Source: Heterodontus francisci
Lineage: Eukaryota
NCBI RefSeq assembly: GCF_036365525.1
Contig: NC_090394.1
Location: 71,740,893 to 71,804,892 of the forward strand
Reading direction: 5' to 3'
DNA length: 64,000 nt
Shown here: in pieces, positions 2,504 through 57,268 of the stretch
Numbering within the stretch: position 1 is the stretch's first letter
Layout of the letters: each line of letters opens with the position of its first letter
The notes under the pieces: model-generated
What the model saw: the letters and a program-made list of their open reading frames with translations, nothing else
What the model was told of the DNA's origin: nothing
The model's database searches: none
Translations under genes and position numbers: made by a program

Positions 2504-3163
2504 AAAAGCAAAATACTGAAGATGCTGGAAATCTGAAATAAAAACAAGAAATGCTGGAACACGCAGCAGGTCTGGCAGCATCTGTGGAAAGAGCAGCAGA
2601 GTTAACGTTTCGGGTCAGTGACCCTTCTTCGAAACTAGCAAATATTAGAAATGTCAAAGGTTATAAGCAAGTGAGGCGGGAGTGGGGCAAGAGATAACAA
2701 AGGAGAAGGTGTAGATTGGACAAGGCCGTATAGCTGACCAAAAGGTCATGGAGCAAAGGCAAACAATGTTAATGGTGTGTTGAAAGACAAAGCATTCATA
2801 CAGATAGGGTGTTAACGGACTGAAGATTGAACAGCAGCAAGTACAAACATGAAAAAAAAACAGTGGGTAAGCAAACTGAACAAACTAAGATGAAATGAAA
2901 TAAACAAACAAAAAAAAAATTGTAAAAAATGTAAAAAAGAAAAAATAACTAAAAATGAAAGTTAAATGGGGGGCCTGACATGCTCTGAAATTATTGAACT
3001 CAATGTTCAGTCCGGCAGGCTGTAGTGTGCCTAATCGGTAAATGAGATGCTGTTCCTCGAGCTTGCGTTGATGTTCACTGGAACACTGCAGCAAGCCCAG
3101 GATAGAGATGTGAGCATGAGAGCAGGGGGGAGTGTTGAAATGGCAAGCAACCGGAAGCTCATA
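2504..3163 (-). mobile_element. 5'-truncated Penelope-like element (end of GIY-YIG ORF plus 3' terminal repeat)
   Basis: ORF 2885-3094 EEQHLIYRLGTLQPAGLNIEFNNFRA closely matches 35070-35187; exact 15-bp TSD ATAATTTTTTATTAT at 2489-2503 and 3164-3178. Confidence 0.93.
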
Positions 3164-4080
3164 ATAATTTTTTATTATTCGTTTTCATGAGATGTGGGCA
3201 TCACTGGCAAGGCCAACATTTATTGCCCATCCTTAATTGCCCCAAGAAGGTGGTGGTGAGCTGCCTCCTTGAACCTGTTGCAGTCCACCTGGGTACACCC
3301 CACAATGCTGTTGGGGAGGGAGTTCCAGGATTTTGATCCAGCGACAGTGAAGGAATGGCAATACATTTCCCACGCGCCTGCTGCCCTTGTCCTTCTAGGT
3401 GTAAGAGGTCGAGGGTTTGGAAGGTGCTGTCGAAGGAGGCATGTGAGTTGCTGCAGTGCATCTTGTGCGTGGTATACACTGCTGCCGTTGTGCAAATGTG
3501 GTGGAGGAAGTGAATTTTGAAGGTGGTGGATGGGGTGCCGATCAAGCGGGCTGCTTTATCCTGGATGGTGTCGAGCTTCTTGAGTGTTGGAGCTGCACTC
3601 ATCCAGGCAAGTGGAGAGCTTTCTATCATACTCCTGCCTTGTGTCTTGTAGATGGTGGACAGGCTTTGAGGAGTCAGGAGGTAGGTTACTCGCCACAGAA
3701 TTCCCTGACCTGCTTTTGTAGCCACAATATTTATGTGGCTGCTTCAGTTCAGTTTTTGGGCAATGGTAACCCCAGGATGTTGATAGTTGGGAGATTCAGC
3801 GATGGTAATCCCATTGAATGTCAAGGGGAGATGGTTAGATTCTCTCTTGTTGGAGATTGTCATTGCCTGGCTCATGTGTGGCGCGAATGTTACTTGCCAC
3901 TTATCAGTCAAGCCTGAATGTTGTCCAGGTCTTGCTGCACATGGGCACAGACTGCTTCGGTATCTGAGGAGTTGTGAATGGTACTGAACATCATAAAATC
4001 ATCAACAAACACCCCCACTTCTGATCTTAGGATGGAGCGAAGGTCATTGCTGAAGCAGCTGAAGATGGTTGGGCCTAGGA
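3164..4080 (-). mobile_element. 3' part of a CR1/L2-group LINE (family B)
   Basis: ORF 3201-3725 LLTPQSLSTIYKTQGRSMIESSPLAWMSAAPTLKKLDTIQDKAARLI (LINE RT C-terminus); 3' tail shared with 23870-23958, 58015-58210 and 63840-63943. Confidence 0.85.
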
Positions 4081-4440
4081 CAATAAGGACTTGTTAACTT
4101 AATGAATTATATTCATCTTCATGGTAGGGAAGATGACTAAATATCAGTGGTATAAGGGAATGTAAAATTAAGTCAGAGAAACTTACTGGATTTAATATAA
4201 ATAAGGGCGTTGTATTGAGAAAATAATAGGAATTAAGATAGGCAAATCTCCAAGACATGATGGTTTCCACCCCAGGGTAATAAAAGAAATAGATGAGGAA
4301 GTTGCAGGTGTGCCAGTCATACTTTTTCAAAACTTCCTAGATATGGGAATTATGATTTTGGATTGGAAAATTATGCATGCTAGTCCATTGTTTTCAAAAA
4401 GGGAGGAGGGGAGAAACCAGGAATCTACAGATGCATCAGT

Positions 4441-4570
4441 TCAACAACATAGGAAATTGGAACAGGAGCAGGCCATTCGGCCCCCTTGAGCTTGCTCTGC
4501 TATTCAACTAGATCATGGCTGCACTTCTACCTCAATGCCATTTTCCCACACTATCCCCATATCCCTTGAT
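4441..4570 (-). mobile_element. CR1 3' tail fragment inserted antisense into a CR1
   Basis: Reverse complement ends ggccgaatggcctgctcctgttccaatttcctatg, the CR1 terminus also at 7045-7085 and 39617-39650. Confidence 0.8.
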
Positions 4571-5759
4571 AGTTGTAGGGAAGTTGCTAGAATCCATTAT
4601 CCTGGACAAAGTGACTAAGCATTTGGTTAAGTATAAGCTGATCAAAAAGAGTCAGCATGGATTTGTGAAGGGTGGGTCATGTCTGACTCATCCTGTTGAA
4701 TTTTTTGAGGTTACTAACATGGTGTCTGAGGGAGTGTCTATGGCTATTCTCTATATGGTCTGCAAAAGACATTTGATAAGATTATTAGCAAAAGTTAAAA
4801 TGCATGGAATTGGCAGTAATCTTATGACTTGAGTTGGTAATTAGTGGAAAGATAGACAAAATAGATGTATAGGGAACTTTTGAAGTAATATTTTTCCTAT
4901 GCATAGTCAGTGTAATTGTGCACCTTTTTTGGCTTTGTGCTTTATTCTCAAACATTTGATAAATAACTAAATGAGTGCATTGCAGAACAATACTTCCATC
5001 ATTATTAATCTATTTTCTTCAGTAAAAGTATCCATATGAATTCTTTCCATCATATTACGTCATTAATAAAGCCTCCTAGCGTTTGAGTATTTTCAGATCC
5101 TTAAGCCTGTGAAGAATCCCACAAAGCCAAAGGGGAGTTTCTTTCTGCCTCAACAACTATATTCCATGTTTGTTTCTTCTGAGATTTTTTTTTAAACTGA
5201 AGCTTTCATATGTCTGCCATGCTAACAGCTGGGTCCATCACTGGCCTTGAAAAATAGATGCAACAGTTGCTACGTTTTCAAATAACAAAGATGATCTTTG
5301 AGGAAAGGAGAACAGCTGCAAGATTTGACGCATCATGCACTGTCAGCTGCAGGATCCAAAAACTTAGACTCAGTTGTGCAGCATGAATTCAAGTGGAAAT
5401 AATGGGAACAAGTCTATACAGTAAATAAATATTGGTTGGCCATGCTAGTATATTGTTTTTACGTATACATTGCGTATACAACATATGCCTGATTTACTCT
5501 GTTCTACATCAAAAGAATTTTGTGCTTTAGTTACTGTATGCTCAGTCACCATATCAAATATGATTTGTTCTAAGATACATTAAAGTGTGCACATAGTTAT
5601 ACAGGCAAAGTGACTGTTGTAGACAGCAATTGCCAATAAACAGATGTAGTGATTTGTTCTGGTATGCAGTTCATTATTGCTCAGAAACCAGTATTTTCAT
5701 TGCTTCTGGAATTTTTAATGCGCATTAAGGTATTCAGGCAACAAACTGCAACAAATGTG

Positions 5760-7085
5760 AGAACAGGATGAGAGGGTTGTCCTATGATGAGAGGCTGAGT
5801 AAATTGGGCCACTGCTCTGGAGTTTAAAAGAATGAGAGGTGATCTCATTGAAACATACAAGATTCTGAAGGAGCTTGACCGTATCATTCTAGGCCCCCAC
5901 CTGCCAAGAATGAGGCACATTAATTTTGTCATGAACATTCATTTTAAGTTGTTGCTGGAGCGAGGAAATGACTTGTTAAACAGATCAGCTGTGGCTGGAA
6001 AAGACATTTATTTGCATGTTAACAGTCAGTACTTGGAAGGACAAAGGACCATTCCTAACACATTCAACCTACAATGGATCTTGATCACCAGGTATTGTGT
6101 GTAAGAGGAGCATTCCAGAGACTGCTAAGGTGATACAATCCACGACTAGTTAGACCAGCTGGTCACATGACTAACTGGCTGTTCCAGGATCCTTTGAACT
6201 AGCCACAGAGAGTTTGAACTCAAAGATTGTTTGCTCCTGGACTGAGAAGATTTCTTCTGTCTGCTCCCCTCTCTTTCTCTCAAGCCTCTGAATCCACTGA
6301 AGACTCCTACAGAAAACGAGGTTTAAGAAGAATACTGGGCCCCAATGAAAAGCAAGATCTACCTACAATCAAGGACTCTACAGTGAGCTCGAAGAACTGT
6401 AACAAAACCTCTTCAGATATTGCCTCAAACTTATACACTTTATTTTTCTTTTTTTTATTTGCATGTGTGTATCACGTATGCATGCTAGCGTGGGCGCGTT
6501 GTGTATCCATAGGCGTCAACCGAATTAGAGTTTAAGTTTCGTAAATTTCAACCTTTCTTCTTTAAACCTAAGAAAACCTGTTTGTGCTGGTTTCTTTGCC
6601 TTATAATTGGAAAACGGTGAACGAGGTTACACCAAGGGGGAGCTAAAAACATGGTGTGTTTAAAATTAAACCCTGTTGCATAAGACCAGGTGAAGGCTGA
6701 AAGGGACCCCTAGACCCCTTTCTCACCTGGTCATAACAACAGGATAGACACTAATGTTGTTTCCCTTGGCTGGGGAATCGAGAACACAGAGGCACAATCT
6801 CAGTATAAGGGGCCGATCATTTAGGACTGAGGCAAAGAGAAATTTCTTCATTCAGAGGGTTGAGAATCATTATAATTGTCTACCCCAGAGGATTGTGGAT
6901 ACTCCATCGTTGAGTATATGCAAGACTGGGATGAATCGACTTTTGATTTCTCGGGGGTCAAGGGATGTGGGGAGTGGGCAGGAAAGTGGACTTGAGTTAG
7001 AAGATCAGCCATGTATGTATTGAATGGCGGAACAGGCTTGAGGGGCCAAATGGTCTACTCCTGCTCCTATTCCTTATGTTCTTAA
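5760..7085 (+). mobile_element. CR1 3' end interrupted by a solo LTR
   Basis: MRGDLIETYKILKELD at 5832; continues after 6738 as LFPLAGESRT..HNL.IRGR.FRTE.KRNFF.QRV; ends ctcctgctcctattccttatgttctta. Confidence 0.9.
5882..6738 (+). mobile_element. Gypsy-type solo LTR
   Basis: Splits a CR1 reading frame; ends ...ggtcataaca; 4-bp flanks ACCG (5878-5881) and ACAG (6739-6742); 5' TG appears mutated to TA. Confidence 0.8.
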
Positions 7086-8254
7086 GGAAGTAAAGAAATT
7101 TGCATAATTTATCACAGGATGTTATACTGTGTCAAATCCCTTGCCCTATCTACAGTTTAAAGCATTAGGAACATCCTGAAGTTGTAATAATGCACGATAA
7201 CAATGTTCTTTCCTTTTATTTCCTTTCTTAGATAAAAAGGCTTCAATTGCTGTTAATAAGTGCAGTTGAACATACATTCAAATGAATTTCCAGTCAAACA
7301 TGCAGCCAAAGTACTAAATGTTCTTAACAGTATTACCCATTGCAGATTTAAGTCTGATGGCAACACTATATTGACATAAAATGTCCATGTAATGCATTTG
7401 TGATAATTTTGAAATTTCTTCTTTGTTCTATACAATAGCAGTAAAACTTAATACCACAATATTGAGTCTACAATTTGAGGGCAGAATAATATATCAAATT
7501 TGTATGCTTTGCTATAAAGATCCTGGAAATTCATTGCAGTATTGAGACAAATTTCAATTTCATCTTGGTGACAGAGCACTATAAAAGTACTCTCAAAAAA
7601 TTATTTGGCTGCTGCAGTGGGAGCTGCACATGAAGAAGGTAGTGAATCAGAAAGAGGAGACATTACTCTGCAAATGGAATTTACAAAGCTTGTACAAATG
7701 ATCTGGCTCCAACTGAAAGGAAATATCTCCAGCAATTCAGCAAACAAACTGTGACTGATCTGTGTCTCGGTTTTTCAACAATAAGCTATTATCTCACACT
7801 TATTTGTATCTTATTGCCAAATATTGACTGCTAAGCAAAAACATGGTCCTTAAAAAGTATTCTGACTGCTTCCAGGTAACTGTTGCTGATCAAGTGAGCT
7901 TTAAAGTGTTAAACAGTTAACCCATATTGGCCTCCATCCAAACTTTAAATGGTCCAAACCATGCACCTTACATCTCAGTTGATCTCAGTGTACAGTGCAT
8001 ATTGGAGCACATCACTAAATGGTCCCAGAATGCACGTTATTTTAATTACTAAATTGATTTTGTTTCTTTGTGTGGAGATTAGTGGAAAGTGGAATACAGG
8101 AAGCACAAAATATGTAGTGTAAAATATAGGTAGAGTTATGTTTATATATATTTCTCAGCCAGAAGTCAAGTATTTAGCCTTCACTGCCATAATAACTTGA
8201 TGTAGTTTAGCAAAGATTGCTAAAGAAAACATTAACCTGCATAGGATTAACATC

Positions 8255-8525
8255 ATAGATGTGAGTTGTTTTTAAGATTCAACCTCAAGCTTTGGGTGTT
8301 GTAGGCAAGGCTGCCGTTTATTGCCTTCACAGATGTCCTTGAAATGGCGATAGTGGGACACCATCTTGGACTTCTGCAGTACATGTGGTGGAGGTGCACC
8401 TGTAATGCTGTTAGATAGGGAACTCCAGGATTTTGAGCCCAGTAACAATTAAGTATCAGAGAGACTGTCAGATCTGTGTAACTTGGAGGTGATGGTGTCA
8501 TGCCCTTGGATTGCCCTTGCTTCAC
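8255..8525 (-). mobile_element. Decayed family B LINE 3' fragment
   Basis: gggaactccaggattttgagcccag resembles 3318-3345. Confidence 0.6.
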
Positions 8526-10639
8526 GGGTGCCCTCCACAGTTTCTGCTGCTGTTAACTTTGAATTTGTCCAACTCTAAAGGAAGAATTTTGCCTCTGGGA
8601 TCGGGAGCCCGATGTCTGAACCATTTCCCGGTCCCAAACCAGCGTGGGGGTGGGGGGGGAGGTGGGTGGGGGAGTAGTCACAGCCCACGATTTTCCCTGA
8701 TGTCAGTTGCTAATTGGAGGAAGGGTTGGGCGGCCAATTAGTGGCGGCAGGTGTGGGACAGAGTTGGGACATCTGAAGTTGTGACCTAATTTCAAGGCAT
8801 CATGGCTGCCGTTTTGAATCAGAATGCAAGCTCCAGTGCAACAGGAAGAGAGGCAGAGGCCTGGCACCTGGAGTAAGACTTCCCCACGCATCACGGATGT
8901 AGATCTTGAGGTGCTACTGGGAGTCACAAAGGAGGCTGCACTTTGACCAGCAGTGAGAGATGTGTACCCAGAGTTCCCTGAGGCAGTGCCAGGTCATGGG
9001 CTGAGAATGGAGGAGTCCATTCAGCTCAAGTGTGCCACCATGGTTCAGGGCTTTGAATTCATGAACTCCTTCATTGAGATAGTGGCCAACCTCATGGAGA
9101 GCCATGTGGCAGCACTCAGTGAACACAGGAGCAGCGCGCTGAATGCACAGAATATATGCAGTGCTCTGTGGCATTGACCAGAGAGTGGTGCTGATGGCGC
9201 AAAAATGTATGAAGTGGATGCCAGGTGGACCCCAGCTCTTGGTCCCCTCCAGCGATCTGGAGAACCATCCAAAGGCTGAAGCAGTCACCAACGAGGGTGA
9301 GGAAGCTTCTCCTCGTGCGGTGTCATAATCATCGATCTGAGGAACCATCTATGTCGCAGGGCCCTGTGACAGAGATAATGAGGGTGACCGCCACAGGCAT
9401 CTCAGCTGCAAGCAGACATGAGAGCAGGCTGCCTCCACCTACTTTGTATCTGTGTTTACTAGAGAACAAGAATCTGACAAAATATCGGTAAAGCGGTGAG
9501 AGTAGAGACAATGGATAGGGTAAAAATTGAGAGTGTGGAGGTACTGGAAAGGCCGGCTTTGCTTAGGGTAGGTAAGTCACATGGTCCAGATGGCTTGCAT
9601 CCCAGGTTGCTAAAGAAAGTGGGGATGGAGATAGCAGAAGGGCTTACCATAATCTTCCAATCTTCCCCAGATACCGGGGATGTGCCAGAAGATTGGAGCG
9701 TGGCAAATGTGACACCCTTATTCAAGAAAGGGTAGAAGGAGGCGAGACTGGATAGGCTGGGGTTGTTTTCCTTGGAGCAGAGAAGGCTGAGTTGGACCTG
9801 ATTGAGGTGTACAAAATTATGAGGGGCATTGATAGGATAGTTAGAAAGAAACGTTTTCCTTAGCGGAGGGGTCAATAACCAGGGGGCATAGATTTAAGGT
9901 AAGGAGCAGGAGTTTAGAGGGGAGTTGAGGAAAAAATTTTCACCCAGAGGGTGGTTGGAATCTGGATGGGTGCTTAATGGTCGGCGCAGACACGTTGGGC
10001 CGAAGGGCCTGTTTCTGAGCTGTACAACTCTATGACAGTCCTAGCAACTACAAGCCAGTTAGTTTATCAGTGGTGGGTAAGATTTTAGAAACAATAATCA
10101 GGCAAAAAAAATCAACAGGCACTTAGTCTGACTTAATTAAGGATAGCCAGCATGGATTTGTAAAAGGCAGATCATACTTGACTAACCTAACTGAATTTTT
10201 TGATGAAGTAACAGAGAAGGCTAAGTGTTGACTATATGGATTTTAAGAAAGTGTTTGATAAAGCAATACGTAAAAGGCTGGTTAACAAAATTGAGGCTCA
10301 TGGAATAGGAGGGTCAGTGTCCAATGGATAAGAAATTTGCTCAAGGACCAAAAACAGCAAGTCGTGGTAAATGGTTGTTTAGCAGACTGGAGGATGGTGG
10401 ACAGTGGTGTTCCCCAAGGTCAGCGCTAAGACCACTGCTTTTTTTGCTATATATAAATGACTTTAATCTTGAATACAGAATAGCATCTCGAAATTTGCCG
10501 ATGATATCAAACTTGGAGGTGTGGCAAACAGTGAGGCTGATATGAATGGCCTGCAACAGGACATAGGCTAGCAGAATGGGCAGACCAGTGGCAGATGGAA
10601 TTTAATACAGTCAAATGTGAGGTGCTGCATTTTATCAGA

Positions 10640-16538: not shown

Positions 16539-16553
16539 TAATTTACACTTAGT

Positions 16554-17209: not shown

Positions 17210-17360
17210 AAACAAAAATAGAAAATACTGACTGATGAAAGGTACGCACCTGAAATGCCCTAACATGATTTTTTTGTCTTCACAGTTGCTATCTGACCTG
17301 CTGTGTATATTTCCAGCATTTTCTATTTTTGTTTGATTTCCAACATTTGCAGATTTTTCT
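17210..17360 (+). mobile_element. Short Penelope-terminus derivative with decayed hammerhead core
   Basis: CTGATGA-A-AGGT-acgc-ACCT-GAAA at 17232-17255 followed by the Penelope terminal sequence ctgacctgctg..tttccagcattttc. Confidence 0.65.
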
Positions 17361-18674
17361 TTAATTTGATATATCCTATTTACTGAAGAAGCAATAGAGG
17401 AAGAATCCCTGCCTGTTATAAGGAGAACATCTCTATTGGTTTTAGGATGATGGAAAGCAAATAAAGGAAGACTTTACTGAACTTAGTAAATAAAAATATT
17501 GGAAGTAAATGTTTCTGCATTGGAGATAGATGAACAAACCAAATCGGGTTTTCTCATTCCATACATTTTGCATTGTAGCTGAATAAGCATGCTACATTTT
17601 CTGCCCATTAACTTAATAGGTGGACAATTTAGCCAAATAATCTTCAGCACAAATTGGATAGACAAATTTAATATTACGACACAAACAACCCGTCGTATAT
17701 TTATAAACGGTTTTGTATTTTTGAAAAAAAAAACTAGCATTTTAGAATCTGGACTTCTGAACTAGAAAGGATGAGACATTTATGCACTTGTATATTTAAT
17801 TGCTTTAAAATACATAAATGTTCTTGCATATTTAATTGCTTTAATTTAAAGTAGATTTTTGGAAGTTTTTAGATTTCTTAATGCTGCATTAGTGAGCTTT
17901 CAGAACAAGAATGCCCATTTTCATAGATCCTGAAAACTATTTGTAAAATGCAGCTTGTTTTAAAATACCTGGGATAGAGGTCTACCTATATAATCAAAAT
18001 AGTTTAAATTTAGTTTCCAGGAAATTTACATTTTTAATGTAATAAACCTAATTTGCATTTCTGCTTGCCTTTTTTTCTAAAAAAAAAGCCAATGTGTAAT
18101 TGCTGAATAGCACCTCTGGGAGGTGTGTGCTTTCCATATGTCAAAGCAATAATCTAACCCTTCATAATCCATTTTTTTTCCTGCACAGACTAGTATCAAC
18201 CTTTGACCCTCAAGTCAAGAGTTGAGACACCATTTCCACAACTGACTCTCTGGAGTGATTAGATTCCAAGTCTGTTCCAGTTACATTCTGTTAGCACAGG
18301 ATATCCATTCACCATTTTCTTTTTACTTTAATCACTGACACTTATAGTTCCCTTTTTCCAACACATGAGGGTTTATTTAGTTTGATTGACAGTGCAGGTC
18401 TCTACAAAGTTTGAAGGTCAAACTCGTGCAATGAAAGTACTGTATTACACCTCAGTTATTTTTGATGTGTCTCAGCAGATCACCAAACCCAAAGAAAAAA
18501 AACCACACGGTTATGTGTTTTGAATTTTATATTCGGCGGGTGGGTGATGCTGGGGGACAGAAATCTAACATAAAAGTTAGAAACTGAAACCTTACCAATA
18601 CATAGATGTAATTGTTATGGTTTATTAATAGCTGTCAGTTGCTTTTGTCATAAGAAAGGTGTTGTGTCAGCCTG

Positions 18675-18821
18675 AAATAAAAACAGAAAGTGTCATAAAT
18701 ACTCAGCAGGGCAGGCAGCATCTGTGGAGCGAGAAACCGAGTTAACGTTTCAGGTCTGTGACCTTTCATCAGTTCTTTTTTATTTCCGATTTCCAGCATC
18801 TGCAGTATTTTGCTTTTATTA
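18675..18821 (-). mobile_element. ~150-bp non-autonomous Penelope-terminus element with hammerhead core
   Basis: TSD TGTTGTG(T/C)CAGCCTG at 18660-18674 and 18822-18836 (14/15); minus strand CTGATGA-A-AGGTC-aca-GACCT-GAAACGTT at 18744-18772. Confidence 0.85.
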
Positions 18822-19154
18822 TGTTGTGCCAGCCTGTCCCAGTGGTAGTATTCTCACTTCTGAATTAGAAGTTCTGGTTGAGAACATAAATGTAAGCTGA
18901 CTCTTCACACTAAGGGAGTGGTACATTGTCAGAGGTGTCACCTTTCAAATGAACTAATAAACTGAGATCTTGTCTGTTCAAATGGAAGTTAAAAAATTCC
19001 ATGGTAATATTTGGAGAAGTAGGAGAGTTCTCCAATGTCCTGGTCAATGTTCAACCCTCAATTAATGGCAGCAAAATAAAATGCCTGGTCATTTATGTCT
19101 TTTATTGTACCTTGGTTTGCACATTGGCTACCATCTTCACTTTTTTGTCACTTG

Positions 19155-31553: not shown

Positions 31554-32455
31554 AATTTGTATGCAATATGGCATGATTACATTCGTATATTAGGTTTGGA
31601 ATTTTGTGGTGGCTTTTATTTTTGTATTGTGGGCACGAGAATGAGGTGATTGTCAGTGACAGAGTGTGGGGACTGTTGGTGAATGGGGAATTGGGATTAT
31701 GGTTACTGAAAAATTATTTCTTCATGGAGACACGTACAGCCCGGGCAGAAAGGAGCTGTCTGCGTTGCCGCCTCCCTTCCTTTTCCACTTCCTCCTCCTC
31801 CTTATCAGCTTTTTGCCCGGTCGCTAGTGGTAAGGGCTGCAGCCTTATGATAGCAAGGTTGTGCATCATGCACCATACCACTATGATCTGGAGACCTGCT
31901 CAGCTGAGTACTGCAGGGCTCCTCCAGAGCAGTCCAGGCATTAGAATTGTTGCTTCAGCACACCCATGGTATGCTCTGTAACATTTATTTGGCAGCATGA
32001 CTATCACTGTATGCATGCTGTGCACATGTGCATGAGTTGTGAACCAGAGTCATAAGCCATGTCTTAAGTGCATAGCCCTTGTTGCCCAGTAGCCGCCCTT
32101 TGATTTGCCATGGTGGCTGAAATGCAACTGGCACAGAAGACTACCACAGAATGATTGCATCATGACTGCTAGATACTGGGTATGACCTGCATGATATGCA
32201 GCCTGTGTTCACACACCAGCTGAACCAGGTGAAGTAGAATCCCTAAAATAAAAGCAAAATACTGCGGATGCTGTAAATCTGAAATAAAAACAAGAAATGC
32301 TGGAAATACTCAGCAGGTCTGGCAGCATTTGTGGAAAGAGAAGCAAAGTGAACGTTTCGGGTCAGTGACCCTTCACTTTGTATTTCAGATTTCCAGCATC
32401 CGCAGTATTTTGCTTTTATTTTAGTGTTTAATTCACTGCCACTTCTCTTCCAGGA

Positions 32456-35187
32456 ATGCCTATCTTGAAGAAGTTCTGCTCTTCTCTCCGACGGGATTTT
32501 CGTTTGTCTCTTTTACCTTGTTCACCTCAGTTGCTTTCTATTTCCCTCCTGGTGTTTGATAAAAATGTCTACCAAAACTCGTTTTCACAGCCACATCTCC
32601 TTTCTCAGTTACTGTCTCCGGCTCCGACTTATTCCACGTGGATTCCAACTGCAGTTTCACCCATCATGTTTTGAATCCCCCCAGGACTACAGGTATTTCC
32701 GAGAAATACAACGTTTCTCGGACTGCTATTCTCGCCGCATCCTGAGATCCACACTCTGTGCTATGCGCAGCCACATGCACACACTGAACCTCTCCTGCAG
32801 CACCGCCTCACCTTATCTCAAAGCTGTTCTACTCCACAGTTTCATTTCATCTTTCCTCTCATCCGATGCATTAACAAAAAACTTTTTTTCTTCCTTTCGG
32901 ATGTCAAGGAACGCAAGCTCCAGCAGCTGATGGGGACGAATGCTCCTCCAGATCCTCCTTCTGCTTCACTTCCCTCTGACCCCACCCCTTCTGATCTGAC
33001 CCCTTGCCGTGTATTCACTATATCCTCTGACCTCCCCCTCTCTGATGCTGAACGTTCTGTGCTCAGCAAAGGTCTCAGTTTTATCCCCTTACGTCCCCAC
33101 CTCAGTGAATTTTGCGCTCGGCATGACGTTGAGCTCTTCTTCCGTCGCCTCCACCTCCGGGCTCACTTCTTTGACCAGGAGTCCTCCCCCCAACCAGCAG
33201 ACCCATTCACCCGCCTCCAGCATTCTCCCTCTACCTGGACCCCTCCCCCTGGCCTCTTACCCGCTCTTGATATTTTCATTGAAAACTGTTGGCAAGACAT
33301 TGGTCATCTCAATTTCTCTGCCCCCCTCACTCACTCTAACCTGTCTGTCCCCCTCTGAACTTGAGGCACTCCGTTCTCTCAGGTCTAACCCCGACATGGT
33401 CATCAAACCTGCATACAAGGGTGGTGCTGTTGTTGTATGGCGTACTGACCTCTATCTTGCAGAAGCTCAATGCCAACTCACATACACTTCTTCCTACCCA
33501 CCACCGAACATCAAGCCACTGTGCAAAGGACTGTCACTGACCCCATCTGCTCTGGAGATCTTCCCTCTGCAGCTTCCGACCTCATAGTCCCGCAACCCCG
33601 GACAGCCCACTTCTACTTCCTTCTCAAAATCCACAAACGGGACTGTCCCGGCAGACCCATTGTGTCAGCCTGCTCCTGCCCCACTGAACTTATTTCTTCC
33701 TATCTTGACTCTATCTTTTCTCCGCTGGTCCAGTCTCTTCCCACCTACATCCGTGACTCTTCTGACGCCCTACGTCATTTTGACAATTTCCAGTTTCCTG
33801 GTCCCAACCGCTGCCTCTTCACTATGGACATCCAATCGCTCTACACCTCCATCCCCCACCAGGACGGTTTGAGGGCTCTCCGCTTCTTCCTTGAACAGAG
33901 GCCCAACCAGTCCCCATCCACCATCACCCTCCTCCGCCTGGCTGAACTTGTTCTCGCATTGAACAACTTCTCCTTCAACTCCACTCACTTCCTTCAAGTA
34001 AAAGGTGTCGCTATGGGTACCCTCATGGGTCCTAGTTATGCCTGTCTTTTTGTGGGATATGTCGAGCATTCTTTGTTCCAGTCCTACTCAGGCCCCCTCC
34101 CCCAACTCTTTTTCCGGTACATTGATGACTGTATCGGTGCCGTTTCCTGCTCCCGCCCCGAACTGGAAAACTTTATCAACTTTGCTTCCAATTTCCACCC
34201 TTCTCTCACCTTTACATGGTCCATCTCTGACACTTTCCTTTCCGTCCTCGACTTCTCTGTCTCCATCTCTGGGGATAGGTTGTCTACTAATATCCATTAT
34301 AAGCCCACCGACTCCCAGAGCTACCTGGACTACACTTCTTCACACCCTACCTCCTGTAAGGACTCCATTCCATTCTCCCAGTTTCTCCATCTCTGACGCA
34401 TCTACTCTGATGATGCTACCTTCCATGACGGTGCTTCTGATATGACCTCCTTTTTCCTCAACCGAGGATACCCCCCACTGTTGTTGACAGGGCCCTCAAC
34501 CGTGTCCGACCCATTTCCCGCACCTCTACCCTCACCCCTTCCCTTCCCTCCCAGAACCGTGTCACGGTTCCCCTTGTCTTCACTTTCCACCCCATCAGCC
34601 TCCATATCCAAAGGATCATCCTCCGCCATTTCCGCCACCTCCAGCGCGATGCCACTACCAAACGCATCTTCCCCTCCCTTCCCTTGTCAGCATTCCGAAG
34701 GGATCGTTCCCTTCGCGACACCCTGGTCCACTCCTCCATTACCCCCACCACCTCGTCCCCGTCCCAGGGCACCTTCCCTTGCAATCGCAGGAGGTGTAAT
34801 ACCTGCCCATTTACCTCCTCTCTCCTCACTATCCCAGGCCCCAAACACTCCTTTCAGGTGAAGCAGCGATTTACTTGTACTTCTTTCAATGTAGTATACT
34901 GTATTCGCTGCTCACAATGTGGTGTCCTCTACATTGGGGAGACCAAACGCAGACTGGGTGACCGCTTGGCGGAACACCTCCGCTCAGTCCGCAAGCAGGA
35001 CCCTGAGCTTCCGGTTGCTTGCCATTTCAACACTCCCCCCTGCTCTCATGCTCACATCTCTGTCCTGGGATTGCTGCAGTGTTCCAGTGAACATCAATGC
35101 AAGCTTGAGGAACAGCATCTCATTTACTGATTAGGCACACTACAGCCTGCCGGCCTGAACATTGAGTTCAATAATTTCAGAGCATGA
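32456..35187 (+). pseudogene. Penelope RT/GIY-YIG polyprotein with several frameshifts and stops
   Basis: VIKPAYKGGAVVVW; LKIHKRDCPGRPIVS; GVAMGTLMGPSYA; FFRYIDD; CNRRRCNTC linker; VVYCIRCSQCGVLYIGETKRRLGDRLAEH. Confidence 0.95.
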
Positions 35188-35524
35188 CGGGTCCCCCATT
35201 TTACTTTTATTTTTAGTTATTTTTTCTTTTTTACATTTTTTACTATTTTTTTTGTATGTTTATTTCATTTCATCTTAGTTTGTTCAGTTTGCTTACCCAC
35301 TTTTTTTTCATGTTTGTACTTGCTGCTGTTCAATCTTCAGTCCGTTAACACCCTATCTGTACTAATGCTTTGTCTTTCAACACACCATTAACATATTGTT
35401 TGCCTTTGCTCCATGACCTTTTGGTCAGCTATGTGACCTTGTCCAATCTACACCTTCTCCTTTGTTATCTCTTGCCCACCCCTGCCTCATTTGCTTATAA
35501 CCTTTGACATTTCTAATATTTGCC

Positions 35525-35561
35525 AGTTCCGAAGAAGGGTCACTGACCCGAAACGTTAACT
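35525..35561 (+). ncRNA. Minimal type I hammerhead ribozyme motif in the Penelope 3' terminal repeat
   Basis: AGTT-CCGAAGA-A-GGGTC-act-GACCC-GAAAC-GTT-AACT: stem I AGTT/AACT, perfect 5-bp stem II, loopless palindromic stem III (AACGTT); core has C at position U4. Confidence 0.75.
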
Positions 35562-36059
35562 CTGCTTCTGTTTCCACAGATGCTGCCAGACCTGTGAAGT
35601 AGAATCCCTCTAGGTTCCAGTACTTGGCAGGGTTGACATGGAGTGCTTGCAAAGCAGTGGCACCCTGCACCATGGGGAAGCATGGAATCTTAGTAAAACC
35701 TCGTACTTGCTCTTCCTGCTTGTCTTTAGAGAGAGAGAATGAAATGAAATTAGCTGTCTTTGAATTGAGAGCCACAGTGACCTCCCTTACACAACATTGG
35801 GCGGCAAACTGCGCAATGTTGCTAATATTTTTCCAGCTGCAGGTTGGAAGGAGGCAGATGCATTAAAGTTCGTCAGCATGGTCATCTTCACAGCCACTGG
35901 CAATGCAGCCCTTGTCCTGATCTGTGGCTGCTGTAGTTGCTGTAGCATTTGGCAGATTTCAGTGAGGACCTCCTTAATGAAGTGCAGGCATCTCTCACTG
36001 TTCCTTGCTGAAGTTCAGGTGGAAGAACTGCTCCCTGAAAACCCTGGATGGGTACTAAT

Positions 36060-39998: not shown

Positions 39999-40345
39999 GG
40001 GCGGCACAGTGGCGCAGTGGTTAGCACCGCAGCCTCACAGCTCCAACGACCCGGGTTCGATTCTGGGTACTGCCTGTGTGGAGTTTGCAAGTTCTCCCTG
40101 TGACCGTGTGGGTTTTCGCCGGGTGCTCCAGTTTCCTCCCACAGCCAAAGACTTGCAGGTTGATAGGTAAATTGGCCATTATAAATTGCCCCCAGTATAG
40201 GTAGGTGGTAGGGGAATATAGGGGATGTGGTAGGAATATGGGATTAGTGTAGGATTAGTATAAATGGGTGGTTGATGGTCGGCACAGACTTGGTGGGCCG
40301 AAGGGCCTGTTTCAGTGCTGTATCTCTAAATAAAATAAATAAAAT
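39999..40345 (+). mobile_element. HE1-like V-SINE
   Basis: gggcggcacagtggcgcagtggttagc..gggttcgattc; CR1-type tail and A-rich end. Confidence 0.93.
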
Positions 40346-43190: not shown

Positions 43191-43389
43191 GGCAAATCCA
43201 TGGGACTTATTGGGGTACACAAGGCCAATGCAGAGAAAGGGACCCTGACCGAGAGTGCAACAGATCAGGCTGTAGCTCTGATTGCAGCTGTAAGACCAAG
43301 TACAAAACCAGCTGTGAGTGTGGGGGATGTGAACAAGATAACTGAGTGTCAAAAAGAAAAGTAACTCCATATCCCTCAAGTGAGGCAGG

Positions 43390-46300
43390 TAAACCTATAG
43401 TTATACTCAGGGATACTGGAGCAACCCTAACTCTCTTGCTGGGGTAAGGCATGACTTTTCCACCAGAGGGCGCATTGAATGTCAAGTTTTTAGCGAATAG
43501 TGTAGGCGGGGAGTATATACCCGTACCTTTGTATTGGTTACAGCTTGAGTGTGACCTAATGTCTGGAACGGTAACTGTAGGAGTTGTCCATATTTTGCCT
43601 GTAGGTGGAGTTGACCCACTCCTGGGGAATGATTTGGCCAGAATAAAGGTAGTAGCTTTTCCAGTAGTCACGGAAAAACCAATTGAAGTCAAAAAGACAG
43701 AACAGTTAGTTGCAGGAAAAGATTCCAGGAATTTTTCCTTCATGTGTGTTGACCTGAGCAATGGCCAAACAAGTTCCATTGTCGGAGGTAAAGTTGGCAC
43801 CGCAGACAGATAGCTGAATATCTAAAGCTTTCTTTGGGGATTTGGATAATCCAAAGGAAGTGTTTAATAAGTCTTCTCTGATCACAGCTCAGCAAGTGGA
43901 TCCAGAGGTAAATAAAGTGGCACAATCGGCTGTAACAGAAGCTGAGGGAAAGGGAGTTCCAGAAGGCTAATATATTAAAAATGGGATTCTGATGAAGTGG
44001 AGACCTCCTCACAGACCTCCAGACGAAGAATGGACGGTTGTTCATCAGATAGTGGTACCGCCCAGGTATCGCCGGGAAATATTAAGGATAGCCCATGAAA
44101 TTCCTATAGTGGAACATGTGGGGATCCAGAAGACCCAATCATGTTTAGTAGACATTTTTACTAGCCAGGTCTTTCAAAGGATGTGGTGCAGTTTTGTAAA
44201 ACGTGCCGTACGTGCCAGATTGTGGGAAAACCGCAACCTGCTGTTAAACTGGCACGTCTAATTCCCATACCAGTTTTTAGGTAACCATTTAGGGTGTTGG
44301 TAGACTGTGTAGGACCTTTACCGAAAACAAAAGCGGGACACCAATCTATACTCTCTATCATGGATATGGCTACTCGGTTCCCAGAGGCCATTCCCTTGAG
44401 AACAATTTCTGCTAAGGTAGTGGTAGGGAAGTTAACCCAGTTCTTCACTAGATGTGGATTACCGATTAAGATTCATTCGGATCAAGGTTCCAATTTTATG
44501 TCTAAAATTCTCCCGGAAGTTATGAATAATTTGAGTGTAACACAGTTAAAATCTTCAGCATACCACCCAGAGACACAAAGGGCTATATAGAAAGGTACTA
44601 TCAGACCCTCAAAATGATGATCAGGGCATATTGTTATGAATATCTCCATGATTGGGATAAAGGGCTAGAATTTCTTTTGTTTGCCATTCGGGATTCACCT
44701 AATGAGTCTACCAGTTTTAGTCCTTTTGAATTAGTTTATGGACATGAGATAAGAGGTCCTCTAAAACTAGTCAAAGAAAGGTTTTTAGAACAGAGGGACA
44801 AATATTCTTTGCTAGATTATCTATCTGTGTTCCGGGAGTGACTGACGAGAGCCTGCTAAGTGGCTCAGGAACACTGAAAGCCTCCCAAACAACCATGAAG
44901 AAATGGGCAGAAAAGCATGCCAAGACCCGAGCATTTCAATCAGGGGATGAGGTGTTCGTTTTACTGCCTTTACTGGGTGAATCGCTGAAAGCATGGATCA
45001 GTGGTCCATATAAAGTCAAAAGAATTGGTAAAGTAAATTATTTGATTGACATCCCAGATCACCGGAAAAAGAATCGGCTGTGTCATATCAATATGTTGAA
45101 ACAATATCATCCCCAGGAGGAGGATAAGCAAGGGCTGGTATGTCGGGTAGTAGGGACAGTGAAGGATGAAAGGATAGTGAGGATGAGGCAGAAGGAGACC
45201 TAGACAATTCTCAAATTGAACCTCCTACTATCCACTTTGCTAATACCGAATTGTTAGGGAGATTGGACACTATGCTTTCATATTTAGATGCAGAACAACG
45301 AGAAGACCTAACTAGGCTGCTCACAGCATTTAAAGGAGTCTATAGAGACAAACCATGATGTACAATCTTAGCCACACATGATGTGGATGTTTTTTATTTT
45401 TTTTTATTTGAGATACAGCACTGAAACAGCTCACCGAGTCTGTGCCGACCATCAACCACCCATTTATACTAATCCTACATTAATCCCATTACCCTCTCAC
45501 ATCCCCACCTTCCCCCTACCTATACTAGGGGCAATTTACCTATCAACCTGCAAGTCTTTGGCTGTGGGAGGAAACTGGAGCACCCGGCGAAAACCTAAGC
45601 GGTCACAGGGAGAACTTGCAAACTTCGCACAGGCAGTGCCCAGAATTGAACCCGGGTCGCTGGAGCTGTGAGGCTGCGGTGCTGACCACTGCGCCACTGT
45701 GGGGAATCCTTTCCTATAAAACAGCATCCTTATCGCTTAAGTCCAGAGAAACAGGCCCAGGTAAAAGCAGTAAGCTGACGGTTCAACTAGATTCCGCATA
45801 GACTACAGAAAGGTTAATGCAGTAACAAAGGCAGACTCCTACCCAATTCCTCGCTTGGAAGACTGTTGACAGAATGGGCAGTGTCACGTTTCTTACAAAA
45901 ATAGATTTGTTAAAGGGATACTGGCAGGTTCCTTTAACGTCCCGAGGTAAAGAAATATCGGCCTTTGTCACACCAGACAGCCTTTTCCAATGCTGAGTGA
46001 TGCCATTTGGGCTAAAAAGTGCCCCATCCACTTTTCAGAGACTAATGAACCAAGTGGTAGCCAGTGTGCCTAACTTTGTGGTTTATTTTGATGATGTGCT
46101 GGTATATAGTGACACTTGGAAAGATCACTTGGAACACCTAGAAGCTCTGTTTAGAAAATTACAATTGGCTGATTTAGTGATAAACCTTGCCAAAAGTGAA
46201 TTTGCAAAAGCGAGAGCAACCTACCTCGGGCATATAGTAGGGCAAGGACAAGTGTTGCCAAGAACAGCAAAATTACAAGCAATGGTGCTGTTCCCTACCC

Positions 46301-46884
46301 CTCGGACTAAGCAAGAAATCTTGAGGTTTTTGGGGATGTGTGGTTCTATTGCAAGTTAGTACCAAATTTTGGTACTATATCTGCTCCACTGACAGATATG
46401 CTACAAAAAAAGAAAACCAAGATAGTATGGTCAGGGGAGTGACTAGCATCTTTTGAGAGGTTGAGAGGCTGAAAGCCATTTTGAGTAATGAGATAGTGTT
46501 GGCTGCTCCAAATTTCACTAAGCCCTTCAAGGTAGTAATTAATGCTAGCGACCTGGGGGCCAGTGCAGTCCTGTTACAGGACGATGAATCAGGCATAGGA
46601 AGTCCTTGTTTGGAATACTTTTCCAAAAAAACTAAATCAACGCTAACAAAGATATTCAACAGTGGAAAAAGAAACCCTAGGCTGAATTACTAGCTCTTAA
46701 ACATTTGAAGTTTATGTCTGCCATGACTGCAGAGAAACACTGGTATGTACTGATCATAACCCCCTAACCTTTGTGGAAAAATTAAAAAAACCAGAATGCC
46801 AGACTATTGCAACCTTATCACTTAAAGATTGTCCACATTGCGGGAAAAAATAATGCAATTGCAGATGCTTTGTCTAGAATCTAA
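43390..46884 (+). pseudogene. Pol in protease-integrase-RT-RNase H order
   Basis: ILRDTGA (~43402); integrase LVDCVGPLP..IHSDQGSNF..SAYHPETQ (44294-44590) and GPY (~45003); RT MPFGLKSAPSTFQR..YFDDVLVYS (45997-46359); RNase H NASDLGASAVLLQ, TDHNPL, NAIADALSR. Confidence 0.95.
45390..45700 (-). mobile_element. HE1-like V-SINE inserted in Gypsy pol
   Basis: Reverse complement of the 39999-40345 family, with a T-rich tail at 45390. Confidence 0.92.
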
Positions 46885-48502: not shown

Positions 48503-48574
48503 TCTTTTGGGCCTCCTTATCTCGAGAGACAATGGATACGCGCCTGGAGGTGGTCAGTGGTTTGTGAAGCAGAA
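48503..48574 (-). mobile_element. Very short RTE 3' tail insertion
   Basis: Matches 63146-63210; flanked by TAAAT direct repeats; interrupts CR1. Confidence 0.75.
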
Positions 48575-52322: not shown

Positions 52323-52490
52323 GGGTCCTCACTCTGCATTACAGAAGGGAAGGGGGGGATACACAGGGGTCTAACTCTGCGTTCTGGAAGGGAGGTGGGG
52401 GGTGGTATATGCAGGGGTCTAACTCTGCATTCTTAGAGGGAGGGGGGATACACAGGGGTCTAACTCCGCATTCTGAAAGGGAGGGGGTCT
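52323..52490 (+). repeat. G-rich minisatellite, about 4 copies of a 40-48 bp unit
   Basis: Recurring ggggtctaactctgcattct..agggaggggggatacaca. Confidence 0.85.
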
Positions 52491-54522
52491 GGGATTACTG
52501 GAGGGAAAGCTGTGCTGGCATGAAGGGAGGTACCACGTACCATCCCTCCGTTAACGGTGTACACTCTGTGTTTATGAGGAGGTAGTGGCAAACTAGTCAC
52601 CATGTGTGTGCAGGGTGCCAGAAAGGGCAGGAGCATTAAGGTTCTATGGATGGTGGGGGCAATCAATTCAGCTGGTAGGATCTTGATGTGGTCATGCTGT
52701 GCCACTGAGTATTGGCCAAGATGGGCAGTGCCATGGGACGCCACATAGTTGATCCAGGAAATCAGCTGATGTACTCGTCAACACCAATCCATGCCCTGTT
52801 CGGGACCTTCGAATACATGCAGCGTTCAACTTTATATATCACATGGAAATAGGTATGGCTCATCCTACATTGTGAGATCCACTGCACCTGAGGATCCGTA
52901 TGCGCCAGAGGCAATACCAACAGGCAGGTGCGATCACGTAGAGGCCCCCAGTCGTGAGCAGCGGCCCCCAAGGGGATCTCACCATTACGTTTGACGTGCA
53001 TCTACAGGCCCCACATGACATGACATCGGATGTCAGAGCACCAGTGTCAGAGGAGATTGCGCATTTCGCGAGGTTAGTGACACGTCTCTGCATAAGGATG
53101 ACCTGCAGCCCATGAGCTCGGGTGGACATCCCATGCCTTTGTTCCTTGTACTGGCAGCGGTTCTCAAGCCTGATGCCGCTGCAGCCTTTTAGGAGCCCAA
53201 CAGAGACCTTTGTGGGGTCACACAGCAGCGCACCGCTGCATCAGGGAGGTCACCAATGCCCTGCACCAGAGGGCCAGTGAGTATGTCCGCTTCAGGACGG
53301 AGGCCGTTGGTTCTGGCACCATTGCCAAGAACCATAGGTTGTAATGTTCATAGACTACACTCATGTGGCCATCAGGCCTACTGCCAGTCTACCACCTACA
53401 GATGTCACCATTAAAGGAGCCCTCTCAATCTAGGTGAAGCTGGTATGTGAACACCACAGATGCTTGCAGCGAATGGGTGACCGCTTGTAAGGCAGCTGCC
53501 ATGACACCTGGGTCTTGCGCCAGTCCCGGCTGCCACCGCTGTTCACTGAACTGGCTCAGATGGAGGGGTGGCATCTTGGAGATAAGGGCTATCCTTTGCA
53601 GACATGGCTCCCGACACCAGTGGGAGACTCCACCACTGCTGCAGAGGAGAGATACAATGCCAGCCGCTGAGCTACACGAGCCACCATTGAGCAGGAGATC
53701 GGCATGCTGAAAGAGCATCTCTAATGCCTGTATGGATAGGGTGATACCCTGTACTGTGGGCCGAAAAGGCCAGATCCTTTCTTTGCTGCTCTGCACAACT
53801 ACGCACCCAATAGGGGCCAGGCCTGGCATTATGATGAGAGACGTCAACAGGATTCCTCCTCGGACTATGAGGACGCTGAGGACCTACAATATGAAAGATG
53901 CATGGGAGGGCAGATGGCACCCAGGCTCTGCACGCAAGGCTAACAGTGAGGTAGGGATGTACGGTAGTGGCTTATTAGACAAAGGCTGTCTGCTCCATAG
54001 GAATCGACATGAGCTCTGCAAGCCACACATCATCCTCGCTGACTTGCTGTGCACCAGTCCACATCTGCAGCATTCCTGTGTAGACCATTAGAGGCAGCAG
54101 CTGACTTAGTCAAGGTCCATGTCACTGCATCCGTGGAGATGCTCATGTGTAATGGTGGCATGGCAATAATATTGCATATGTTGGCTCTTCTGAAGGGCCA
54201 ACGGTGCAAAAGGATGTGACATTGGTACTACATGCTGGTACACATCATTCGCACAGCTAAAAGGACACACATGTTGGTGAGGACCATTTAGTGAAAGACG
54301 TATTTACATTGCTGTGACACCCGTGCATTCCCATTTGTGTTCGTGTGTTCTCTGAAAACCTCTAATATCTTTTATGGTGTATTTAAGTCCCACGTCCTGG
54401 AATCTGCAAATTTAAGATTATTCACCCAGCTGCAGCACACATACAAGAAGGAATGTTACACTTGAGTGGGAGAAGAGGATTGCAACTTCACAAGACACTG
54501 GGACACAGCAGGGTAAGTATGT

Positions 54523-54716
54523 GGCAGCAAAGCAGAAATTGCTGGGGTAACTCAGCAGGTAAGGCAGCATCTGTGGAGAGAGAAGCAGAGTTAAATTTCA
54601 GGTCTGTGAACTTAGAGTCATAGAGTTTTACAGCACAGAAACAGGCCCCTCTGCTTCTCTCTCCACAGATGCTGCCTGACCTGCTGGATTTCTGCAGCAC
54701 TTTCAGATTTGCTGCC
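54523..54716. mobile_element. Palindromic Penelope-terminus element with a CR1 3' tail in its loop
   Basis: Arms ggcagcatctgtggagagagaagcagag / ctctgcttctctctccacagatgctgcc; loop 54613-54648 is the reverse complement of a CR1 terminus. Confidence 0.8.
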
Positions 54717-56109
54717 AGATTAACAGCAGCCCCACTCTTCAGTAGTCAGGTAAGTATTACTTTGACAGCTGTCAGGAAGCAGGTGCTGGGGCGCTTAAAA
54801 TAGGGACCCAACACCTGTTGCACAGCTGTCAAAGGGTTCCTCACTGCGCCAAATGTCCCGCCTCTCCCCACGTAATATTGGGGAGGCTTGGTGCAGTGAT
54901 GCTTGGCGCCCCAATAAAATTCAGCCCAGTGTGTTTTTAAAAACTGAGGAAAGGATTTTTCTCTGTGGACATTGATTGCTGAAACTTGGTGGGTTTGAAC
55001 TGAGTGAATTACACAGACTGCAAGGCACATGTTTCCAACCTGTTTCCAGCAGTGGAATGACAGGTCAAGATTTATGATTGTCATGTGACTTGATCGTTGA
55101 AGTTAGTTTCACTTTTGGATTGTGAAAAGACCAGTGAGTTGGACAAGGAGTAGGCAGTTGAAATCTGGCTGTGACCTGACTGGAGAAAAAGACCTCTCTC
55201 TGTAAAGGAGACTTTCATCTCTTGAAAAGAAATCCTGCAGTTGAAATGTGGCTGTGATCTGCCTGGAGAGAGAAAAAGGACTCAGAAAAAACGAGTTACT
55301 TCTCTCTCTAGAGGGAGACTGCTTTTCAGAGAAGAAATCCCTGTATGTCAGAGGTAGCAGATTCCTATTGCCTGCAGTCTTTGAAGAATCCCTGCCTCAA
55401 GAGTGTCCTGTTGCCTCCTATGTTTTGGGAAACCCTGAAATCTCACGAAAGCTTCTACTGCTAGACTGCTTTTTTAAAACCCAAGCAGACCTGTTATTGC
55501 ACCCTTTTGCTGAAAGACCTTTGTGACGCCTACTGCAGACAAATTGCCTTGAATACCTACTCATCACAGACTATTCATCAACCTCGCCTGGAGAGACATT
55601 GAGTGGCATCCAACTATTCGACTCTGGGACACCTCACTGTACCGAAAACATCCTACCAGAACGTGATAAAGTCCATCATGTTATTTTTTCCATTTTATTC
55701 CTAGGAAACAGCTGTAAACCAAAAAAATCCTTTTTCCCTGGTTAACAGTTTTTTTTGAATGTATGTGTGTGTGCATGAGGGTTAAGGAAATAATGAGTTT
55801 TTCATATATATAGATTTATCTTATTAGTAGTTAAGACTTATTATTTCTTTTCTCATAAATAGTTAATATTGTTGTTGTTTAAAGAAACCTGGTTTGGTGT
55901 GCTTTATTCTGGGGGACAAATAGAGTGTCTAATTTGGCTATTCTTCGGTAGGTGGGAAACTTTCTTGATATGCTGTGACCTGTGGAGTAGTGGGACTGAA
56001 TTAACAGTGCATTACTCCCGCCTTGGTCACAACACATGAAAAAAGTTTATTTGTTCCTTTTTTGTATTTCATCAAACCTAGAATCACTCAGGATGAGACA
56101 GTGAGAGCG

Positions 56110-56510
56110 ATAGGATCTTCTGTATGGTGAGGTAGCCAGGGCCAGGCGACCAGTGGGGTGCCCAAAGCTCCGCTTCAAGGATACTTGCAAACATGACATG
56201 AAGGTCCTAAATGTCGACTGTTGCACCCGGGAGTTGGTAGCTGGCAAAAGAGAGAAATGGTGACACATGCTGTGGACTGGTGTGCACTACCATGACGACT
56301 AATTGCTTACAGGAGCTTGGCAACAGGCTCCAACGTCAAACAGAACAACTCACAGCGTCACTTGGAAGCTTCATGTGTGGCACTTGTGGCAAAACCTGCC
56401 TCTCAAGGATTGGCCTTCACAACCATCAGCAAAGGTGCACCACCCCACCTAAATGGATTGTTTGCTGTGTGTCCATAATTTTTATTAGATGGAAGGATGC
56501 CAACCAACCA
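56110..56510 (+). mobile_element. RTE LINE 3' fragment, same family as 21250-22070
   Basis: FMCGTCGKTCLSRIGLHNHQQRC; DNA colinear with 21665-22070. Confidence 0.9.
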
Positions 56511-57087
56511 AAAACCAACAGTTCTTCAGTCTTCTCTCTGAGCATTGATCAGCACTTTTGAATTCTATACAAAATGATCTGTTGATGCAGAAACCCTACA
56601 AAACCTCCAGCCTGATGGTTGGAATCTGAAAATATCGTACAAAGCAATGGTTGAAACATTTCTACAATATTTTCCTTTTAAGAGCACTAAAGTTTGCTTT
56701 CAGCATCAGGACTATGGAGGGAAACAGAGGAAAATTAAATATGAAATATCCCTTCAAACTGTACAGAAGGTAGTATTCTGTTGGTATTTACTCATTGACT
56801 AGCTCCTAAACTTCCTATGTACAATTCAAAAATATAATTCATTTGTCTGATGATGGGTAAAACTAACAATAGGGTAGTTCCCAAATGCGTTCTGTCCACA
56901 ATTGCACTTAGATAATATGTCTAAAAAGCCAAATTTCATTTCAAGCTGATGGTTCACTATAAAACAAATGGATGAATGGAAATTGTTTTCAAACTGCTGC
57001 ATTTTGGCTTGGCAGTCTTTACCTATACCTAAGAAGTATTGTGAAACAAAATTCTTAGAATAGTCATCAGAACTTGTATAGAACTAT

Positions 57088-57268
57088 AGTGTTAACATTT
57101 CAGGTCATTGACCTTTCATCAGAACGTTTTGACGAAATTCTGAAGAAGAGTCATCAACCTGAAACAGTAACTCTTTCTGCACAGATGATTCCAGACCTGC
57201 TGAGTATTCCCAGCATTTTCAGTTTTTATTTCAGATTTCCAGTATCTGCAGTATTTTGCTTTTATAAA
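57088..57268. mobile_element. Penelope-terminus element with two opposed hammerhead cores
   Basis: Minus strand GTT-CTGATGA-A-AGGTC-aat-GACCT-GAAATGTT-AAC (57091-57125); decayed plus-strand CTGAAGA..GAAAC (57140-57165); then the Penelope terminus ..ctgcagtattttgctttta. Confidence 0.8.

Follow-up and report, generated by a model that had tools for sequence, protein, structure and literature searches.

The window analysed here (64,000 nucleotides of the Heterodontus francisci genome, contig NC_090394.1, positions 71,740,893 to 71,804,892) contains a near-full-length Penelope-like element of the Neptune type and a number of shorter sequences that are related to the region around its minimal hammerhead ribozyme motif. 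An earlier note on this DNA had reported eight sites carrying the motif or parts of it, and all eight exist, at or within a few bases of where it had placed them. We consider it likely that the eight sites are insertions of one endonuclease-bearing Penelope-like family with a Neptune linker, and that the short copies are run-off products of the element's own RNA, not independent ribozyme elements. Signed positions are given relative to hammerhead base C3 (0 = window 35529), which puts the start of stem I at -4 (35525) and the predicted cut between +28 and +29 (window 35557/35558).

The long insertion and its intact relatives

The main features of the long insertion are the following.

32230..32244, + strand: left target-site duplication, 15 bp, identical to 35595-35609
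32245..32374, - strand: arm of the long insertion in inverted orientation, covering the hammerhead from stem II on and the long tail (about +5 to +134), 94% identical to a natural intact unit
32377..35594, + strand: near-full-length inactivated Neptune-type Penelope-like element, 93% identical over 3288 nt to intact unit L241
32456..35187, + strand: single open reading frame (ORF), broken by frameshifts and stops (tblastn of a natural intact protein: three frames, stops)
33653..34138, + strand: reverse transcriptase (RT) core (Pfam RVT_1, E=2.4e-7; YIDD and upstream DKG motifs)
34780..34806, + strand: CX4CX2C zinc-finger-like linker, a Neptune/Nematis mark by its sequence (definition in PMC8557442)
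34888..35184, + strand: GIY-YIG endonuclease (Pfam PF01541, E=3.3e-4, slightly below the curated threshold)
35525..35561, + strand: minimal type I hammerhead motif by its fold, core CCGAAGA (U4C), predicted cut between 35557 and 35558
35595..35609, + strand: right target-site duplication, 15 bp, pairs with 32230-32244

The sequence between the two 15-bp target duplications (32245-35594) is one insertion, composed of an inverted arm and a near-complete unit. The unit lacks a 5' hammerhead of its own and is clipped at its 3' end at about +65. The partial motif copy that the earlier note had listed at ~32350 is present, but it is not a separate copy: it is the inverted arm of this insertion, as one 15-bp duplication flanks both. 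The boundary statistics presented below suggest that 35525, the first base of the hammerhead, corresponds to the first base of the element's RNA.

The long copy had been taken for an autonomous-type element, which does not hold for the window copy with its frameshifts and stops; intact, near-identical copies occur elsewhere in the genome. Of the 150 best-scoring RT matches in the genome, ~49 (a count made by eye) sit in an open frame of 924 codons. We retrieved 19 loci with this frame and all 19 were intact, encoding proteins that differ by 0-14 residues; counted from the Met, the ORF has 916 codons. An upstream partial tandem was present in 15 of the 19, and one locus was an array of four 3,301-bp units. 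In the latter (G000:C23:66093200-66107500; L236, L237), the four intact units, each with the 924-codon frame, are arranged head-to-tail and are preceded by a partial unit and an inverted arm. At another locus (L238:1062-1755) five tandem 140-bp repeats of the first part of the ORF, without hammerhead, precede an intact copy.

The assignment to the endonuclease-bearing Penelope-like elements, as the note had proposed, is supported by the Pfam matches and by the single ORF that combines an RT with a C-terminal GIY-YIG domain, although the latter scores just under the Pfam cut-off. The protein further shows the DKG motif (at 328) and the CCHH residues of the endonuclease (C/C/H/H, by eye). The proposed Neptune type is supported by the linker: a CX2-5CxxC sequence between RT and endonuclease marks Neptune, and also Nematis (PMC8557442), and CX4CX2C is found at 790-798. 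Moreover, the partial tandems that form pseudo-long terminal repeats (pLTRs), the inverted truncated arm and the one-sided tail (whose ends lie about 34 nt apart) are features of Penelope-like elements. The presence of at least two subfamilies is likewise supported. Copies with the core CUGAUGA reach into coding sequence and have their own coding upstream sequence; this subfamily is therefore an older autonomous lineage.

The shorter copies in the window are:

2502..3161, - strand: 660-bp 5'-truncated copy, 94.5% identical to 35004-35594, 15-bp target duplication in the flanks
17210..17367, + strand: old decayed stub, a short inverted piece plus an arm from core to long tail; stems I and III lost
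18672..18822, - strand: stub of the older subfamily, a piece of long tail in inverted orientation fused to an arm that spans C3 to the short end (sequence and flanks)
54529..54734, no strand: coreless head-to-head tail pair, cargo in another repeat of at least 1.1 kb (flanks shared at three places)
57090..57265, no strand: two arms placed head-to-head, one on the minus strand that has lost its tail (57090-57126) and a decayed one on the plus strand with the long tail (57136-57265)

The copy at 2502-3161 contains the end of the endonuclease frame, the 3' untranslated region, a hammerhead (2600-2636, core UCGAAGA, C3U plus U4C) and the long tail, and given this span and coding content it is not the non-coding unit of 150-200 bp that had been described. 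The stub at 18672-18822 has a target duplication of about 15 bp with one mismatch, and its motif (18740-18772) lacks the 5' strand of stem I. The partial copy reported at ~54590 does exist, but without a core and as cargo of another repeat. This repeat (window 53800-54903) was 80-86% identical at three sampled places with the palindrome fixed, and its copy in the window has a short additional insert at its centre. Within the pair at 57090-57265, the motif at 57091 reads GAAAUGUU and has no tail, while stem II of the partner motif at 57140 is broken.

Hammerhead motif and core variants

A descriptor consisting of the core and a paired stem II matched the window 5 times, whereas it matched none of 30 Markov-simulated windows. 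Within the 6.0-Gb genome, an exact 17-nt pattern for the 5' half of the motif was found 102,447 times versus 10 times for the reversed pattern that served as control. An Rfam scan (E<=10) yielded no match to a hammerhead model, only weak unrelated ones. The architecture is that of a minimal type I hammerhead with a stem I of 4 bp, one extra base after A9 (between 9 and 10.1), a stem II of 5 bp and a palindromic ACGU (15.2-16.2) in place of stem III, with the cut predicted after GUU. The register of the cut at 35557 and the palindromic stem III had thus been read correctly.

Covariation within stem II had also been claimed, and this proved true for pair 10.1:11.1 and for no other stem pair. Among 36 arms from the genome sample described below, the pair was A:U in 13, G:C in 13, G:U in 9 and A:C in none, whereas all other stem pairs were invariant apart from decay; the variation amounts to two inherited changes and not to broad covariation. 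The expected conservation of the core over its flanks was not seen within the genome (majority fraction 0.82 for the core and 0.86 for stem II versus 0.92 for the tail), a weak test of selection because dead copies decay neutrally; its absence is one of the outcomes that the earlier note had named as speaking against its reading. Single-copy folding z-scores were weak as well (-1.85 to +0.70). Nor does a single motif consensus cover all sites: no copy in the window is wholly canonical and the core at 2600-2636 falls outside the consensus given earlier. The canonical core (CUGANGA plus GAAA) is present in older subfamilies. The youngest subfamily carries the U4C change, and in each of the 19 intact young copies the motif at the 3' end has CCGAAGA. 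U4C was reported to lower cleavage in vitro considerably, with viroid infection still possible (PMC3088659).

Boundaries of the short copies and their origin

The ends of the copies were analysed in seven 200-kb blocks of the genome (1.4 Mb), which were picked blind to content and contained 107 arms. The 5' ends were distributed as follows: 12 beyond -500, 8 at -499 to -100, 2 at -99 to -6, 18 at -5 to 0, 24 at +1 to +12, 11 at +13 to +25, 11 at +26 to +32 and 21 further in. A boundary at -4 was also apparent genome-wide, where 84,646 exact matches included A(-4) and 45,984 remained upon the addition of five upstream bases (46% lost); nine further upstream bases left 38,693 (16% lost), and a six-base 3' extension, used as control, kept 77% of the copies. 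The 3' ends fell into two classes, with 52 arms ending short (about +96), 50 long (about +130) and 5 in between. The two classes were strictly combined in the head-to-head pairs: of the 25 recovered, 20 had unambiguous ends and all 20 consisted of one long and one short arm, the other 5 involving a diverged arm. An exact target duplication of 14-15 bp flanked 10 of the 20 unambiguous pairs.

Restarts of the unit provide a view of the same boundary. Using a query from the ORF start, thus without the hammerhead, we found that 6 of 25 loci have a broken-off ORF followed immediately by a new unit, in all six cases starting at -4 or -3, and 5 of the 25 begin at -4 to +1. Two of the 19 intact copies start at -3 and -4. 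Of 40 -4 junctions that were selected for inspection because A(-4) is preceded by G or A, 7 show a repetition of the unit's initial bases. The first 6-10 bases are reiterated up to three times at the 5' junctions of L290, L281, L285, L262, L263, L292 and L276, which is reminiscent of repeat addition by a telomerase-related enzyme. The base before A(-4) was G in 5,190 and A in 2,859 cases; considering a background ratio of 0.73-0.87, G occurs about twice as often as expected, and a copied cap would give such an excess.

The boundaries fit run-off products that are primed on sense RNA. The RNA would begin with hammerhead stem I (-4, window 35525) and would hence carry the same ~135 nt at both ends. 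The protein would nick both target strands about 15 bp apart and would start synthesis at two fixed sites, one near +96 and the other near +130. The variably truncated long copies would result from priming on the 3' copy, whereas priming on the 5' copy would give a cDNA of 100-135 nt that runs off the RNA end. This cDNA may be sealed in, may be linked head-to-head with the cDNA made at the other nick, or may jump to another position on the RNA. One priming at each site, on opposite strands, would produce the head-to-head pairs. Jumps would produce chimeras and perhaps also partial tandems, although the latter could just as well arise by read-through of tandem masters. The -4 site presumably fits the initiator consensus. 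Cleavage by the hammerhead is probably weak or requires the protein, and insertion probably does not depend on cleavage. For the Anolis element it has been shown that RT starts internally at sites coinciding with the tail, that cutting and extension take place on both strands, and that mutation of the hammerhead does not abolish insertion (PMC11167929).

A more specific form of this scheme is possible, though we would put its chances somewhat below even. The hammerhead would then coincide exactly with bases 1-37 of a capped RNA with terminal redundancy, and tail priming on the 5' copy would generate a strong-stop-like cDNA of 100-135 nt that regenerates the pLTRs by an LTR-like strand transfer to a different position on the RNA, with a dimer priming once per tail site on opposite strands. 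The tens of thousands of stubs in the genome would, if this were true, be fossil intermediates of strand transfer.

Several observations weigh against the run-off origin. Most arms (67 of 107) start downstream of 0, and therefore run-off to -4 would be a minority outcome or its product would be trimmed on joining. One restart (L023) lies at about -134, only ~4 solo -4 copies in the blocks have a clear abutting target duplication, and only ~5 of 20 inspected G junctions are clearly untemplated, the others being target, inverted arm, reiteration or unclear. The RNA sources were assembled contigs only, in which no transcript start is visible; part of the sequence occurs in 20 RNA runs from 8 studies, and the 4 that were compared gave no starts, ends or strand and a depth that mirrors copy number. 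In addition, the -4 region also resembles a 3' splice site, and Penelope of D. virilis starts about 120 nt upstream and has an intron that ends at helix I. Finally, head-to-head structures have already been explained by self-priming on an antisense template (PMC3846280).

The short copies could also be explained by random 5' truncation of 3'-primed cDNA, with the pile-up at -4 resulting from polymerase stalling or from preferential joining at stem I. Such elements are as a rule heavily truncated at the 5' end (PMC8557442), the 67 arms noted above start inside the hammerhead or tail, and some junctions lie on local palindromes, e.g. stem II. We nevertheless regard this as unlikely, since a polymerase should stall when it meets the 3' side of the stem and not after passing through it, and since the 18-versus-2 cliff, the restarts at -4/-3, the reiterated first bases and the full-length starts at -3/-4 would be left unexplained. 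Similarly, the boundary could be a 3' splice site as in D. virilis Penelope, where the intron provides a precedent, with stubs derived from spliced RNA or inverted arms from antisense self-priming (the model in PMC3846280). Given the branch-point-like and pyrimidine-AG sequence that ends at -3 this has some appeal, but A(-4), which would be intronic, is kept by 83% of the copies with -3, the upstream flanks of solo copies share no common exon, and no GT..AG joint was present among the joints listed in the RNA contigs (22 further joints lay outside the listing). We therefore give this possibility little credence.

The earlier note had interpreted the short copies as retrozyme-like passengers. 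As retrozymes they would be non-autonomous elements with self-cleavage, circularisation and an independent spread in separate lineages. The discrete size and very high number of the short copies are in line with this, and according to a 2026 preprint animal retrozymes originate from Penelope pLTRs, with some counted in one chondrichthyan (bioRxiv 10.64898/2026.07.22.740005). Two or more consecutive units with complete hammerheads were found neither in the blocks nor at long-tail junctions genome-wide: none of 21 long-period arrays in the 1.4 Mb contained the motif, no arm had a true same-strand neighbour within 600 bp, and the 10 exact long-tail-to-hammerhead junctions in the genome (the search covered this junction only) were not in arrays. 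Units start at -4 instead of at the cut site (+29), and only 172 exact junctions genome-wide join an inverted arm ending at +29 to a start at -4. Nor do the short copies form an independent lineage. Comparing 178 arms pooled from the blocks and the search loci, we found every major haplotype to be common to short and long copies, and for 96 of 120 short arms the nearest long copy was no more distant than the nearest other short copy (a nearest-neighbour count, used in place of a tree). With the second subfamily having coding upstream sequence of its own, a retrozyme nature of the short copies is very improbable.

Two further sources for the observed ends were considered and rejected. A hidden subfamily with a different upstream sequence does not account for the -4 cliff, as the upstream flanks of solo copies are mutually unrelated. 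None of the 11 arms that start at +26 to +32, around the cut site, was accepted as a cleavage product: 6 abut one foreign terminal-repeat-like end (in one of these the rest of the hammerhead lies 1,961 bp away), 3 are the cargo palindrome and 2 are unassigned. In the six arms with the foreign end, the interruption lies at the hammerhead's TTAA, e.g. in G000:C1 near 150105196, and the interrupting end probably belongs to a DNA transposon that uses this target.

The window appears to contain other repeats as well. Positions 39998-40330 probably hold a tRNA-derived sequence like those of short interspersed elements, and the frame at 14181-14558 has a GDKGY motif typical of Harbinger-type transposases. 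Decayed gag-, protease- and RT-like frames at 42595-46359 (ORF translations, by eye) suggest the remnant of an LTR retroelement.

Comparison with known systems

The combination of a minimal hammerhead with a Neptune-type Penelope-like element is an arrangement that was already published in 2014, when Cervera and De la Pena (PMC4209133) described minimal hammerheads in the pLTRs of metazoan Penelope-like elements, including Neptune of fish. The motifs share the type I topology, the 4-bp stem I, the extra base 9/10.1 and the palindromic 15.2-16.2, and in both cases most are dispersed single motifs, with some close opposite-strand pairs and several families per genome. The count is higher here (>100,000 exact matches versus 4,000-9,000 in coelacanth and Xenopus, obtained with a different search method), and unlike the published motifs the youngest subfamily carries U4C and an older one A10.1-U11.1. 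As to shark Neptune elements, no literature was found, although the supplements of the 2026 preprint and of PMC4209133 may name the host group; the family may already be catalogued in Repbase or Dfam.

A close parallel in insertion chemistry is Poseidon of Anolis (Frangieh et al. 2024, PMC11167929), in which RT starts internally at two sites, located about 100-130 nt beyond the hammerhead, that define the tail; both strands undergo cutting and extension, the junctions are AT-rich, and cleavage is apparently dispensable. The present element differs in having the Neptune linker and in the first Met of its ORF, which lies about 170 nt downstream, whereas that of Poseidon is within the hammerhead. 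Neither a fixed 5' boundary at stem I nor a long-plus-short pairing rule is presented as mechanism in the portions of that paper that were compared. Literature searches, which miss subscription journals, Repbase and several supplements, returned neither the fixed boundary nor the strong-stop reading, and what they returned on twin priming did not concern the present element.

Penelope insertion units (PMC8557442, PMC3846280) have partial tandems, head-to-head inverted arms, target duplications, solo pLTRs and a tail at one end only (30-40 bp) in common with the copies described here. In these papers solo pLTRs are ascribed to recombination or deletion and inversions to antisense self-priming; in contrast, twin priming on sense RNA and run-off fit the boundaries observed here. 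The regeneration of pLTRs and partial tandems has been called unexplained (PMC2377424) and the role of the Penelope hammerhead unclear (PMC8557442). Non-LTR retrozymes (PMC7229834; bioRxiv 10.64898/2026.07.22.740005) are, like the short copies, non-coding, hammerhead-bearing and related to Penelope pLTRs, but they are defined by tandem units with a complete hammerhead each, and no such tandem was found in the blocks or at long-tail junctions genome-wide.

The repeats constitute a large natural record of Penelope insertion chemistry, and the young subfamily, with its many intact copies and a core change that reportedly lowers cleavage, offers a natural test of the importance of the ribozyme. 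From the boundaries one would predict that the RNA starts at -4, that priming occurs near +96 and +130, once at each site in a double insertion, and that cleavage is dispensable. While the system itself is known from the elements compared above, its exact boundaries are a testable mechanistic lead.

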